A DNA stretch of 64,000 bases from Eledone cirrhosa (taxonomy: Eukaryota), in assembly GCA_964016885.1 (NCBI GenBank), contig OZ024749.1:53072001-53136000 (forward strand). Reading direction: 5' to 3'. Below are positions 1,500-62,555 of the stretch, piece after piece; within the stretch, counting starts at the first letter, position 1, and each line of letters opens with the position of its first letter. Below the pieces are notes generated by a model. That model worked only from the letters and a program-made list of their open reading frames with translations, had not been told where the DNA came from and ran no database searches. The position numbers and the translations under genes were made by a program.

Positions 1500-1675
1500 A
1501 CATTTTTTTCCAACCCGCCCGTCCCCTCAATCTATCGTATTTCTCATTCTTTCTTCTGATGAAGGACTAGCGTCCGAAACGTTAAGACCCTTTTCCTGCT
1601 ATATCAAGCGTTAACCTAATATATCCCTTCCATATACTGTACTGATTGTGTTGTTATTTCTGTTTACCTTTTACA
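1500..1675 (+). mobile_element. Short hammerhead-bearing element (Penelope pseudo-LTR/retrozyme-like), family A, ending in (TA)n
   Basis: Near-identical reverse-complement copy at 26841-27025; contains the hammerhead at 1552-1587. Confidence 0.7.
1552..1587 (+). ncRNA. Minimal type I hammerhead ribozyme motif
   Basis: TCTT-CTGATGA-A-GGAC(TAGC)GTCC-GAAAC-GTT-AAGA. Stem I TCTT/AAGA, 4-bp stem II, loopless palindromic stem III (AACGTT), predicted GUU cleavage. Confidence 0.75.
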
Positions 1676-2175
1676 TATATATATATATATATATATATAT
1701 ATGTATGTATATATATACATATATATATATATATATATATATATATATATATATATATATATATATATATACATACATAGCTCGTCCCATTCTTAGAACA
1801 ATGTCTATATATTTATTTCTCTCTCCCTATCACTCCATCTCTCTCTATCACTCTCTCCATCTCCCTCTCTATCACTCTATCTCCCTCTCCATCTCTCTCT
1901 CCATCACTCTATCTCTCACTATCCCTCTATCTTCCTCTCCCTCTCACTATCCCTCTATCACTCTATCTCCGTCTCCATCTCTCTCTCTATCCCTCCATCT
2001 CTCTCACTATCCCTCCATCTCTCTCTCTATCCCTCCATCTCTCTCACTATCCCTCCATCTCTCTCACTATCCCTCCATCTCTTTCACTATCCATCTCTCT
2101 ATCACATTTCATTAGAACCATGTCACCCTCTCTCTATATATTTTGATTATTTCACATATTTTTAATTTGCTACAG

Positions 2176-2229
2176 GTGACCCTCGACGACCGTATCCAAC
2201 AGATTTTGAAATGCGTCATGGATATTTGG
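2176..2229 (+). CDS. MED4: MED4 coding exon
   Basis: Acceptor ctacag|2176, donor 2229|gtaagt. Translates GDPRRPYPTDFEMRHGYL, the hallmark MED4 motif GDPRRPYPTD.EMR.G.L. Confidence 0.96.
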
Positions 2230-2394
2230 GTAAGTAATGGCTTTTTTTTCTAGTCTGAAAATCTTTATCATCATCATCATCATTTTTATGTCTGCTTTTC
2301 CGTACTTTAATGAATCATCTCACATATTTCAGAATGTCACTTGTTAGGATGCTTTCATTAGCACTATTTCTTCTTTTTTCCCCCATATTCCTGA

Positions 2395-2590
2395 AAGGGT
2401 CGTGGGGGAGTCAGAGTCCTCAAACACTCCTTCCAGTGGGTCATGTCAGAAGCAACCATCTCCAACTGATCTGGCTGGATCTCCAAGCGAGACCAGTCAA
2501 GCTCATGGATGTTATCCAGTCCTCTTGCTCAGGGGTCTACCCCTGGGTCTCCTACTGGTTGGTTTTGCCTGTAAAAGCACAGATTCTTAA
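2395..2590 (-). mobile_element. LINE (RTE-like) 3' fragment
   Basis: Similar to 43045-43310 (-) and 30995-31292 (+); degenerate ...GRP..RW... C-terminal reading frame. Confidence 0.6.
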
Positions 2591-60900: not shown

Positions 60901-61894
60901 TTACCTTGATTACCTGTGGCAGATATCTTCTCCCAGATCTCTTATTTGGACTATAGGCTCAGTCACTAGATCGTAGTACAAACCATTTTTATCCACCTTT
61001 GGACAAATTTACTGGACGGCAACATTTCTTTCCTCCCGTCTCTCTCTATCTCTGTACCTCACTAAGTAGAACTTGGAAAAAGTTGAGGGCTTGCTTAGCT
61101 AATAATTGTTTCTACTTTTGGCACAAGGCCAGAAATTACCCAGTGCATTACTGGTAAAGATCAGGATGTTCCCAAGAATCCTCTTAGACACCTGAAGAAG
61201 TCTGATTGTTCTGCCACAGTCAGAGTATAAACAGGCACACCTTTGCTGATGTTCATAGCCCAGGATGTTCCAAAGAATTCTCCCAGACACCTGAAGTCTG
61301 ATTGTTCTGCCACTAAAGGCTCACCTTTGCTGATGATGTTCTCATTCCAGGATAATTCACCCCTCCCCCAACCCCCCAAAAAAACAACAAACCAAAACAT
61401 CAAAAAGCAATAACAATACAATAAAACAATAAAAAAGCTAGAGACAATAGTGTATATAACTGGTCAAGCTAAGTGTATTGAGTTCTCATTTGGCCATAGA
61501 GAGATAGTTATTGATTTATTGAAAAACTGACCAATATAAACCATTCAAAACAAAAGAGATTAATAAGTGAAGTATTCTTGACACACAGACACGAGGGAAG
61601 GAATGGAGAGAAAATGTTTTAATAATAGAAACATTGAGGATGGGAGGGCAGTGGCTAACTTTTGATATTCACAGGATTTTATATGTCCTCCTGCAAAAAT
61701 ACTGAGACAAAAATTGAACCACAAAAATATACATCTTACCATGTATATATGTATATATATATATATATATATATATATATATATATATATATATATATAT
61801 ATATATATGTGTGTGTGTGTGTGATTTAAAACCATATATATATTTATATATAATGTTGTGTCTGATTTAAAACCATATATATATATATATATAT

Positions 61895-62037
61895 AACAAA
61901 GGAATTGTGGTAAGGAACCAGATGGACCATAACGCACCAGAGTACTCAATACTTAGGGTAGTAGAGTGGGAAATAGGAAAAAAGAAATAGCCATCGAAAC
62001 GGCTTGAGCTCTGCCGTCGGGGTCATACTTTTTCCTA
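61895..62037 (+). mobile_element. (TA)n-embedded family D element with GAGTACTCAATAC and a hammerhead 3' half
   Basis: GAA-ACGGC(ttgagctct)GCCGT-C-GGGGTC at 61996-62024; internal taggaaaaaag pairs with terminal ctttttccta. Confidence 0.7.
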
Positions 62038-62068
62038 TATATATATATATATATATATATATATATAT

Positions 62069-62555
62069 AATTGGTTGTTTTGGAAGCCTCAACAATGCAG
62101 ATGGGTAAATCTCCAGGTAACAGAATCAGGTGGTAATGAGAGAGATGTAAGAGGAAATTTAAAATGAGACGTATAGGGTGTAGAGGAACGTAGGAAAGAG
62201 TGTAAAAATAATAACACGAGATAGTTACCTTGGGAGAGATTTAATTGTCCCTATATTTCGGATTTCGCATCCATCAACGATAGACAACAGAGGCCACATG
62301 TTGTCTCTCTCCAACTAAAAAGCCTTCCCCCTCGGAAAACCCCCAGCTGATGGATGCGAAATCCGAAATATAGGGACAATTAAATCACTTCCAAGGTAAC
62401 TATCTCGTGTTATTATTTTTACACTCTTTCCTACGTTCCTCTACACCCTATACATCTCTTTCTACATTTTCTCTTACATCTCTCTCATTACCACCTGATT
62501 CTATTACCCGGAGATTTACCCATCTGGTTTGCTGAGGCTTCCAAAACGACCAATT
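62069..62555. mobile_element. Long foldback element: ~208-bp arms (62069-62276 and 62348-62555), 71-bp spacer, within (TA)n
   Basis: The arms are reverse complements with scattered substitutions, and their inner ends fall in a hammerhead motif. Confidence 0.88.
62341..62375 (+). ncRNA. Hammerhead motif with a mutated core (family F)
   Basis: CCC-CAGCTGA-T-GGAT(GCGAA)ATCC-GAA-ATAT-A-GGG. The core has 2 changes from CTGATGA, while the stems are intact. Confidence 0.6.

Follow-up and report, generated by a model that had tools for sequence, protein, structure and literature searches.

Hammerhead motifs in the window

The window, a stretch of 64,000 nucleotides from the genome of Eledone cirrhosa (contig OZ024749.1), carries short repeat copies with hammerhead-like sequence. 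These copies sort into 10 repeat families (Table 1), in line with an annotation made from the letters alone (the first-pass annotation), which had described several dissimilar families. Hammerhead-like sequence is present at every coordinate listed there, but only 4 of the 8 full sites are complete (1552, 12037, 19641-19698, and 26930). At 12167-12206 the family form is intact, but one private change disturbs the stem III palindrome; at 10240 the core is found, but its position 9 carries a private change and the stem I of its family amounts to ~1 pair. Two other sites could not be upheld as full ones: 42533 belongs to an old family and its stem II is broken, and the canonical-looking start of the core at 62341 is itself a private change in a family whose core is noncanonical, with U4-to-A and A6-to-U departures from the consensus in 21 of the 22 copies tallied. 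All but one of the half motifs correspond to 3' halves or second arms from the families in Table 1; the exception, at ~10940, proves to be a permuted (type-SGC) hammerhead that is complete, has its stem II split, and is predicted to cleave. One further complete site, 8806-8868 (minus strand; family L, also 8859), was absent from the earlier list.

Table 1. Hammerhead-bearing repeat copies in the window
Feature	Positions	Strand	Remarks
Family A, 3' end (pLTR) of Neptune-type Penelope-like element	1455..1674	+	Ends at (TA)n
Family A, complete minimal type I hammerhead	1552-1587	+	Predicted cut after 1583
Family H, 3' half	8692..8737	+	U3-A8 core hammerhead, long stems II and III; Hydra-type parent
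Family C, ribozyme 3' half and tail	8547..8650	+	Core start lost
Family L	8762..8880	-	Hammerhead 8806-8868 complete, 9-bp stem I, palindromic stem III; Hydra-type parent
Family H, short inverted end and tail	8951..9072	.	Between (TA)n tracts
Family B, 3' end of likely Neptune-type element	10150..10347	+	Core at 10240
Family J, young noncoding repeat	10929..11279	-	Ends at (TA)n
Family J, permuted type-SGC hammerhead	10936-11040	-	Core at 10950, predicted cut after 10994
Family C, inverted tail and complete hammerhead (12038-12086)	11973..12117	+	(TA)n on both sides; Hydra-type parent
Family D, fold-back insertion	12136..12360	.	Second arm from 12214, with tail; Hydra-type parent
Family D, hammerhead	12167-12206	-	U10.1-U11.1; one change in stem III
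Family E, inverted 5'-truncated arm and direct arm	19590..20226	.	Direct arm from ~19990, with tail
Family E, complete hammerhead	19641-19698	-	Within inverted arm
Family H, 3' half (minus, 20251-20281) joined to tail	20242..20339	.	
Family A, second copy	26843..27035	-	Hammerhead 26930-26965 complete; ends at (TA)n; 91.7% to first copy
Family C, fold-back, two 3' halves	36281..36421	.	Tail on one arm
Family F, old copy	42519..42696	-	Core at 42566, stem II broken; Poseidon-type parent, tentative clade
Family H, inverted tail and 3' half (61996)	61896..62036	.	
Family G, fold-back with tail	62070..62598	.	Arms 85.6% alike; core near 62341; Poseidon-type parent, tentative clade

The ribozymes differ in architecture. 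Loopless palindromic stems III, which had been described as usual, are not universal: the stems III of families C and H are looped. A reading of family C as a hammerhead without stem I was rejected on the basis of the looped stem III and 5-bp stem I at 12038-12086, where U10.1-U11.1 and a compensatory change in stem I are also seen; stem I of this family covaries across copies (14 vs 5 of 46 copies). Stem II of family E likewise carries U.U, and the pLTR hammerheads are atypical in family B, where stem I is nearly absent, and in family G, where the core departs from the consensus at two positions. No A-to-G editing bias was seen in the fold-backs of the window (arms of families C, D, E, and G, with 1 to 14 mismatches each).

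Could such motifs be chance matches or microsatellite-driven hairpins, not derived from ribozymes at all? Our descriptor accepted CUGANGA or UUGANAA cores; a stem II of at least 3 pairs, or of U.U plus 2 pairs, or of G-C plus an internal loop; a stem III that is palindromic or has at least 3 pairs; and a stem I of at least 4 pairs. This is a form widened post hoc, with the families already seen; the narrower, initial descriptor missed families C, D, and E because it demanded a pair at 10.1-11.1. With the widened descriptor, the window holds 5 complete type I hammerheads, compared with a mean of 0.07 and a maximum of 1 in 150 local dinucleotide shuffles, a frequency that is not shuffle-like; the initial descriptor with a stem I of at least 3 pairs gives 3 versus 0.07, and with no stem I requirement 5 versus 2.5, which is not significant. 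This loosest count is consistent with chance, as is the outcome with Rfam, whose hammerhead models had been proposed as a check and did not detect the sites: there were no matches at the gathering level across the whole window, no hammerhead model matched at E up to 10 in three target stretches, and the best 150 of 325 rows at E up to 10 across the whole window were nearly all microRNA-precursor models on microsatellites. (A general repeat search of the window was also dominated by microsatellites.) Against chance stand 37 stem-checked motifs in 400 kb sampled, compared with 0.47 in shuffles, pairing retained in at least 13 unrelated families, and 2,559 exact copies of a 32-base core region of family A, compared with 0 for a control pattern. 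The stem-checked counts and the exact-copy count already refute the chance reading, which we regard as vanishingly improbable. The scattered hammerhead-shaped motifs are genuine. Genome-wide, there is an estimated ~1 complete motif per 11 to 16 kb, about the density proposed in the first-pass annotation (roughly one per 8 kb), and hammerhead motifs are unusually dense in this genome.

Coding parents and insertion at (TA)n

Penelope coding sequence was not found in the window, as the earlier remark that no open reading frame (ORF) lies nearby had implied. Walking upstream in other genomic copies, however, reaches Penelope-like reverse transcriptase (RT)/GIY-YIG coding sequence in 8 of the 10 families (Neptune-, Hydra-, and Poseidon-type), which bears out both the assignment to minimal type I hammerheads of Penelope type and the proposed link to GIY-YIG+RT ORFs, in one family via a single locus. 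RT plus C-terminal GIY-YIG coding lies upstream of the terminal repeat in at least 2 loci each for families A, C, D, F, G, H, and L; for family B, RT was found upstream in 1 locus only (L319). In family A, the endonuclease lies 470 to 720 nt upstream in 18 loci, and the parents contain RT, a C-x4-C-x2-C linker, and GIY-YIG, that is, the CX2-5CxxC linker between RT and endonuclease that marks Neptune elements; a family A parent matches the Pfam models RVT_1 (E, 5e-4) and GIY-YIG (E, 0.012), both below the curated cutoffs. No parent protein had a Pfam family match above the cutoff, and the Hydra-type proteins went unrecognized. In family H, the endonuclease lies ~1.2 kb upstream in 16 loci, and an H-type RT (L269) has the DKT that replaces DKG in the Hydra clade. 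Family D has upstream coding in three loci (L082, L153, and L205), with the Hydra-clade RW motif (RWK-type, N-terminal) in the parent and an ORF start that, compared by eye, resembles the published Hydra-1_Obim. Coding lies 163 to 204 nt upstream in 5 family G loci among the 14 nearest listed, and RT and GIY-YIG were seen both there and in family F (2 loci). Cysteines precede the endonuclease in family G; a Zn-finger linker is not expected in the Penelope/Poseidon clade. The parents of families C (one endonuclease common to 2 independent loci, 81.5%) and L (upstream coding in 2 loci) are known from endonuclease fragments only. Clade names were assigned from motifs and by-eye comparison rather than from a tree, which applies also to families F and G, and the Neptune assignment of family B reflects RT likeness only (73%). 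Full-length parents were not recovered for families C, D, F, G, and L, which are represented by 3' coding fragments. The upstream-coding counts of family J are confounded with those of family A and are left out here.

The proposed association with (TA)n was borne out by counting 3' ends followed within 30 nt by (TA)4+, against a background of 9 to 10% and 2 of 88 for a SINE-like control end. Such tracts follow 23/29 ends in family A, 18/21 in family B, and, for the long ends, 20/41 in family C, 20/29 in D, 22/28 in G, and 21/22 in H; for the Hydra-type families, this matches the insertion preference published for the Hydra clade. A target site duplication is unreadable inside (TA)n, so that a preexisting tract and later growth of the tract are not separated by these counts. 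Families C, D, E, G, H, and L have two fixed 3' ends, the second being the tail, which fits the published explanation of such tails by two RT start sites (PMC11167929). The 5' ends are variable, and 5' truncation, inverted 5' copies, partial tandems, and the optional tail were all observed.

In total, these observations make it very probable that the motifs represent ribozyme-carrying 3' terminal repeats that belong to coding Penelope-like families, at least eight in number, and to two noncoding repeat families, inserted at (TA)n, likely by a Penelope endonuclease and RT. Because longer copies of 8 of the 10 families run into RT/GIY-YIG coding, their short copies appear to be truncation products of coding elements. 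To judge from sequence comparison, most of the mini-elements are 5'-truncated, often folded-back 3' ends rather than a separate nonautonomous class, and the large nonautonomous set posited in the first-pass annotation thus shrinks to families E and J, which are indeed noncoding units, with the remaining 8 families being coding. We propose that the GIY-YIG domain would nick the TA tract, that reverse transcription would begin at either of two internal sites just 3' of the ribozyme, and that the RT would usually stop or fold back after 60 to 300 nt, so that most insertions would hold little beyond the ribozyme. The template RNA is likely uncut at the ribozyme carried into the insertion. Solo minimal copies are probably mere passengers with weak activity or none, and it is in tandem transcripts, through dimers or with the aid of a protein, that cleavage would have a role.

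The 5' ends and the noncoding families E and J

Among incidental copies, no 5' end lies within 3 nt of the scissile bond (0/74 in family C, 0/26 in D, 0/26 in A, and 0/7 in E), in agreement with uncut RNA as the substrate in vitro (PMC11167929). The 5' ends instead cluster 30 to 45 nt upstream of the cut site and never at it. In family C, ~49 of 64 incidental 5' ends lie in the interval from -45 to -35; the cluster is sharply bounded at -45, ~30 nt after a TATA box at -75; in family H, most of 76 fall between -45 and -31 (H counts 3' of the cut, swamped by a TA run, are left out, and the H query was too short for copies starting at the cut). Families D and L have broadly spread 5' ends, and those of families A and E form ladders. 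Might the Hydra-type mini-elements be complete cDNAs of a short RNA, with the RT priming at the internal site of an upstream pLTR and running to a transcript 5' end at or inside the ribozyme? This possibility, which would refine the truncation model rather than replace it, draws on the pile-ups in C and H and on the internal RT initiation shown for a Poseidon element (PMC11167929). We think it rather doubtful: the sequence upstream of the H and D clusters revealed no TATA box, the ends in D and L are broad, RT stalling on the folded ribozyme accounts for the same pattern, and the 5'-end samples are small and drawn from the flanks of other matches. Since the pile-up in C and H is unlike purely random truncation, families with coding parents may also hold short nonautonomous subfamilies.

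Families E and J are noncoding tandem units, each with a hammerhead, as in retrozymes; they depart from the retrozyme pattern of a ~200- to 400-nt unit with a canonical type I ribozyme, and A, B, C, D, F, G, H, and L depart from it in being coding in their longer copies. The family E unit measures 1.9 kb, recurs in partial tandems with a period of 1,903, and neither contains a long ORF nor matches Penelope proteins; what looked like protein matches in its upstream sequence were an artifact, since one reference ORF overlaps an antisense E copy. Family J forms tandem units of 0.65 to 0.8 kb elsewhere in the genome, with copies 99 to 100% identical. For these two families, the idea that the short copies are nonautonomous, retrozyme-like elements transcribed and copied as their own short units holds, and a 422-bp ribozyme array in 1 of 40 sampled blocks and the TATA-associated 5' ends of family C also favor it. 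As the main account of the short copies it is improbable, given that 8 of the 10 families reach coding sequence, that the 5' ends of A and E form ladders, and that the loci retrieved showed no tandem short units of A, B, D, F, G, or H. Under the truncation model, mobilization of families E and J would depend on proteins of Hydra and Naiad type acting in trans.

The family J ribozyme keeps the S-G-C block order with stems I and III, 89% of the cells being paired. Two-sided changes occur in 6 of 11 pairs of these stems, and the covariation score was reached by 0 of 500 shuffles, in an alignment of 12 rows chosen by a descriptor that itself demands stems I and III. A direct stem II is absent: the strand that follows CUGANGA is not complementary to the one that precedes GAAA, and each pairs with an upstream segment of its own, at ~-18 and at -40 to -50. 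A search of sequencing runs for family J listed no RNA run among its matches. We place about even weight on a wider proposal in which J (10936-11040) would cleave as a permuted hammerhead whose rebuilt stem II has two parts and would be the ribozyme presumed missing from Naiad elements. In this proposal, a very young noncoding tandem element would have spread it in a genome with on the order of 200,000 Penelope-derived hammerheads, where insertions would record a preferred reverse transcription stop just upstream of the cut.

Relation to known elements

Several of these features are already published, namely, minimal hammerheads in truncated Penelope copies, (TA)n targeting, a U10.1-U11.1 stem II, and an octopus Hydra element. 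Our search of the literature found no paper on these particular families, but as a kind they are catalogued (PMC4209133; PMC8557442 and its supplement), contrary to the expectation that they would be uncatalogued. Cervera and de la Pena (2014; PMC4209133) reported minimal type I hammerheads in metazoan Penelope-like elements at 2,000 to 9,000 per genome. Our observations share with that account the solo motifs that truncated elements have left in their thousands, the presence of many dissimilar families in one genome, short palindromic stems III, opposite-strand pairs close together, the U3-A8 core variant (family H), and a bulge after A9 with G10.1-C11.1 (A, B, and F). The density here is far higher, a rough comparison given that the descriptors differ, and stem II begins with U.U in six families. 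We had considered U10.1-U11.1 as a new variant and rejected this, as it is a natural variant in PMC3088659 and is tabulated for many Hydra elements (PMC8557442).

The supplement of Craig et al. (2021; PMC8557442) describes the octopus Hydra-1_Obim, with (TA)n preference and a matching ribozyme style. Hydra-clade elements as described there share with ours the C-terminal endonuclease, the DKT and RW motifs, (TA)n preference, inverted 5' copies, and a tail, and their ribozymes (File S2) share a U after the core and a U before the GAAA box. Our families are not those listed there, have tails of ~45 to 145 nt versus 30 to 40, and coexist in large number, some being very young. Family A, and probably B, shares with the Neptune clade of that paper the RT, the CX2-5CxxC linker, the C-terminal GIY-YIG, and the microsatellite bias, but the family is unnamed there and a single 3' end was seen here. 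The Poseidon element from Anolis, PAc (Frangieh et al. 2024; PMC11167929), shares two 3' ends, AT-rich targets, and copies through an uncut ribozyme, a mechanism shown in vitro there and inferred here.

Families E and J resemble the metazoan non-LTR retrozymes (PMC7229834; bioRxiv 10.64898/2026.07.22.740005) in their noncoding tandem units with one ribozyme each and in a proposed Penelope origin, but differ in unit length (0.65 to 1.9 kb versus ~200 to 400 nt) and in their Penelope-style inversions and tails. With the type-SGC hammerheads of Eckert et al. (2023; PMC10085705), J shares the block order of cut site, GAAA box, and CUGANGA box and covarying stems I and III. Those examples have a direct stem II and come from metatranscriptome and similar sequence sets, whereas J sits in a genomic retroelement, and each of its two stem II strands pairs with a different upstream segment.

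The finding is mostly a rediscovery of a published phenomenon in new families. What is less ordinary is the density, the 5' ends 30 to 45 nt upstream of the cut, and the permuted split-stem-II hammerhead of family J. With a complete motif about every 11 to 16 kb, this genome offers hammerhead variants in great natural variety. Young families whose ORFs are intact, together with ribozymes that have stable stems III (C and H), provide a route to testing the role of the Penelope ribozyme, and the insertion copies point to uncut RNA as the likely template. Should the J ribozyme cleave, it would add animal retroelements to the environmental RNA from which this form is known and would account for the "missing" Naiad hammerhead.

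Motif density and condition of individual sites

Hammerhead-like sequence is present at all of the sites listed in the first-pass annotation of this microsatellite-rich window (G000:C9:53072001-53136000), which lies in an animal genome of 3.0 Gb. A first, narrow descriptor was run with or without a stem I requirement and compared to shuffled sequence: with stem I, it found 3 window sites versus 0.07 in shuffles; without it, 5 versus 2.5, that is, no excess in the window. The descriptor was widened post hoc, with the families already seen, to admit a U.U at positions 10.1-11.1 and a U3-A8 core, and in this form it found 5 window sites (1556+, 12043+, 26961-, 19694-, and 8859-) versus 0.07, with a maximum of 1, in 150 shuffles. 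Left unaltered, the widened descriptor found 37 type I and 3 permuted motifs in 40 evenly spaced 10-kb blocks of the genome, versus 0.47 and 0, respectively, in 30 shuffles. Thirteen of the 37 sit in a single 422-bp array; type I density is 0.62 per 10 kb with that block left out (bootstrap, 0.28 to 1.03) and 0.93 with it included (0.35 to 1.7). The earlier estimate of one motif per 8 kb is of the right order of magnitude, and if the sampled blocks are representative, the genome holds roughly 185,000 to 280,000 type I motifs. At locus L472 (G000:C28:110000001-110010000), ~422-bp units form a tandem array with one U.U-type hammerhead per unit, a retrozyme-like arrangement.

Four of the eight sites annotated as full motifs are complete, and four are altered: 12167-12206 (family D) has a single private change within stem III; 10240 (family B) carries a private change in its core, and stem I of this family amounts to ~1 pair; 42533 (family F) is old, and its stem II is broken; and 62341 (family G) owes its canonical look solely to a private change, core positions 4 and 6 being off consensus in 21/22 tallied G copies. 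Family G (loci L191-L220) retains its stems and 3' box despite these fixed departures, and its sequence suggests either a dead ribozyme in a family that spread nonetheless or a putative variant form. Rfam detected no hammerhead in the three window stretches scanned closely.

The families also differ in stem II. In families A, B, and F, the bulge is the usual one and G10.1-C11.1 is present; in C, D, E, and three families beyond the window, stem II opens with U.U. In the available text of PMC3088659, U.U is a natural variant and the best-tolerated mismatch, and it is the common form among the Hydra elements tabulated in PMC8557442 (File S2, as available). The U3-A8 core of family H is noted in the accessible part of PMC4209133. 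Stem I of family C shows a compensatory change (14 versus 5 of 46 copies).

Ten families and the Penelope parents of eight

Genome searches per site gave 197 to 3,378 first-look candidates each (40 scored and 25 to 30 retrieved per search), and a 32-base core had 2,559 exact genome copies versus 0 for a control pattern. The window sites sort into 10 families.

Window coordinates of ribozyme families and neighboring features
Feature	Position	(TA)n next to 3' end
Family A	1552, 26930	fixed end, 23/29
Family B	10240	fixed end, 18/21
Family C	8547, 12037, 36345	long end, 20/41
Family D	12167, 12214	long end, 20/29
Family E	19641, 20003	
Family F	42533	
Family G	62247, 62341	long end, 22/28
Family H	8704, 8951, 20251, 61996	long end, 21/22
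Family J	10940	
Family L	8859	
TA tracts with stacked families	8464-9072, 11939-12411, 19545-20375, 61744-62632	
43-bp inverted ends	10806-10848, 11423-11465	
Med4 exons	694-828, ~3650-3930	
Family A copy 1	1455-1674	
Calponin/transgelin-like gene	42761-44940	
Calponin-homology exon	around 42761-43162	
515-bp direct repeat	7305-7819, 49106-49616	
SINE-like repeat, ~190 bp	3032-3460, 5551-6094, many others	

No Penelope coding sequence lies within the window; longer copies outside it extend into such sequence. Family A parents (18 loci; Neptune-type) carry reverse transcriptase (RT), a C-x4-C-x2-C linker, and GIY-YIG 470 to 720 nt upstream, with weak, below-cutoff Pfam support, and the family B parent has an RT related to that of A in one locus. 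Hydra-type endonucleases lie ~1.2 kb upstream of family H (16 loci; copies 98 to 100% identical), ~190 nt upstream of family D (with an open reading frame [ORF] start beyond the tail that resembles Hydra-1_Obim), and, as one common endonuclease, upstream of family C in 2/11 long loci compared; the family L parent is also Hydra-type (2 loci). Hydra-1_Obim is a published octopus element, and the likeness of the D parent to it points to a probable cephalopod host. Families F and G have parents with RT and GIY-YIG and are tentatively placed in a Poseidon-like clade. Longer copies thus connect 8 of 10 families to Penelope coding sequence, B through its RT at one locus. Based on this upstream coding sequence, the eight are ends of coding elements, and the suggestion of a largely non-autonomous class survives for E and J only. 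Family E is a 1.9-kb unit that occurs as partial tandems; none of 8 long loci holds a long ORF, and the 2 units compared with 12 Penelope proteins gave no match. Family J is a non-coding tandem unit of 0.65 to 0.8 kb (copies 99 to 100% identical). A very young Hydra-type family (L281-L310 and L407) has 745-codon open frames in many copies, a near-identical endonuclease of a type with 62,584 first-look genome candidates, and its own hammerhead ~1.4 kb downstream.

Copy 1 of family A is sense oriented between Med4 exons; thus, Med4 pre-mRNA contains a minimal hammerhead, which as a monomer probably lacks activity. A family F copy lies on the opposite strand just upstream of the visible CH exon of the calponin/transgelin-like gene, which encodes a CH domain and a calponin repeat.

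Insertion anatomy and a proposed route for copies

Copies end at fixed 3' positions, many of them adjoining (TA)n, versus a background of 9 to 10% and 2/88 for the abundant SINE-like repeat, which has no TA link and served as the control. (The direct repeat, 97.7% identical, belongs to no ribozyme family.) Two 3' ends, ~45 to 145 nt apart, occur in families C, D, E, G, H, and L, and fold-back insertions in which one arm carries the tail and the other stops at the short end are numerous. Fixed and tailed ends with fold-backs match the Penelope signature in the available part of PMC8557442, which also describes Hydra elements, one from octopus, with a (TA)n preference; two internal RT start sites account for the tail in the accessible text of PMC11167929. 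Several families share the same TA tracts, which thus serve as repeated landing pads.

We posit, drawing on that portion of PMC11167929, that a Penelope protein would nick a TA tract and prime reverse transcription just 3' of the ribozyme, with synthesis mostly stopping early, frequently with a fold-back. No incidental copy begins at the scissile bond (C, 0/74; D, 0/26; A, 0/26; E, 0/7), and thus, the template RNA is likely uncut, as it is in vitro in the same source. About 49/64 family C 5' ends fall between -45 and -35, 30 nt past a TATA box, and most of 76 family H ends fall between -45 and -31, where no TATA box was found. Such a pileup could arise by run-off where a transcript begins or by stalling at the folded ribozyme. 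Family C (L221 and relatives) has a CCAAT box, a TATA box, and an initiator-like site; from these, transcription is predicted to begin where the 5' ends cluster, ~6 nt before the ribozyme core. Solo minimal motifs should cleave poorly; the portions available of PMC4209133 and PMC11167929 report weak cleavage by dimers and a protein requirement of the Anolis ribozyme, respectively.

The permuted hammerhead of family J

What had been annotated as a half motif at 10940 has the sequence of a whole hammerhead in permuted order: the predicted cut site comes first, followed by the GAAA box and then the CUGANGA box, as in type SGC in the available text of PMC10085705. A permuted descriptor matched the window once, versus 5/200 shuffles at loose settings and 1/200 at J's own stem lengths. 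Across 12 related copies, stems I and III are paired in 89% of cells, with two-sided change in 6/11 pairs; these rows (two out of register) were selected by a descriptor demanding both stems, so the covariation lends support but involves some circularity. The two strands of stem II are not complementary to one another. Across five subfamilies, each finds its partner in a separate upstream segment, with the spacing almost constant and the letters changed; the descriptor did not ask for this pairing. The 43-bp inverted ends flank TA tracts around J and are possibly the short end of another Penelope family with J nested within. The Naiad record directly preceding Naiad_Ovul in PMC8557442 (File S5, as available) has, by eye, a 3' end in permuted order, and literature since 2021 on Naiad, hammerhead, and permutation, judged from titles and abstract openings, yielded no such ribozyme.

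The accessible part of PMC4209133 describes, by the thousands, solo minimal hammerheads that come from truncated elements and fall into many families, opposite-strand pairs among them, and the available text of a preprint (bioRxiv 10.64898/2026.07.22.740005) argues that Penelope elements are the source of retrozymes. Searches of the literature on hammerheads, Penelope elements, and retrozymes in octopus or cephalopods turned up no survey covering these families. In total, the window's motifs are real, dense, and mostly the expected product of known retroelements; A to H, J, and L are fresh families of an already described phenomenon, and the permuted ribozyme of J is the most novel part of the observation.
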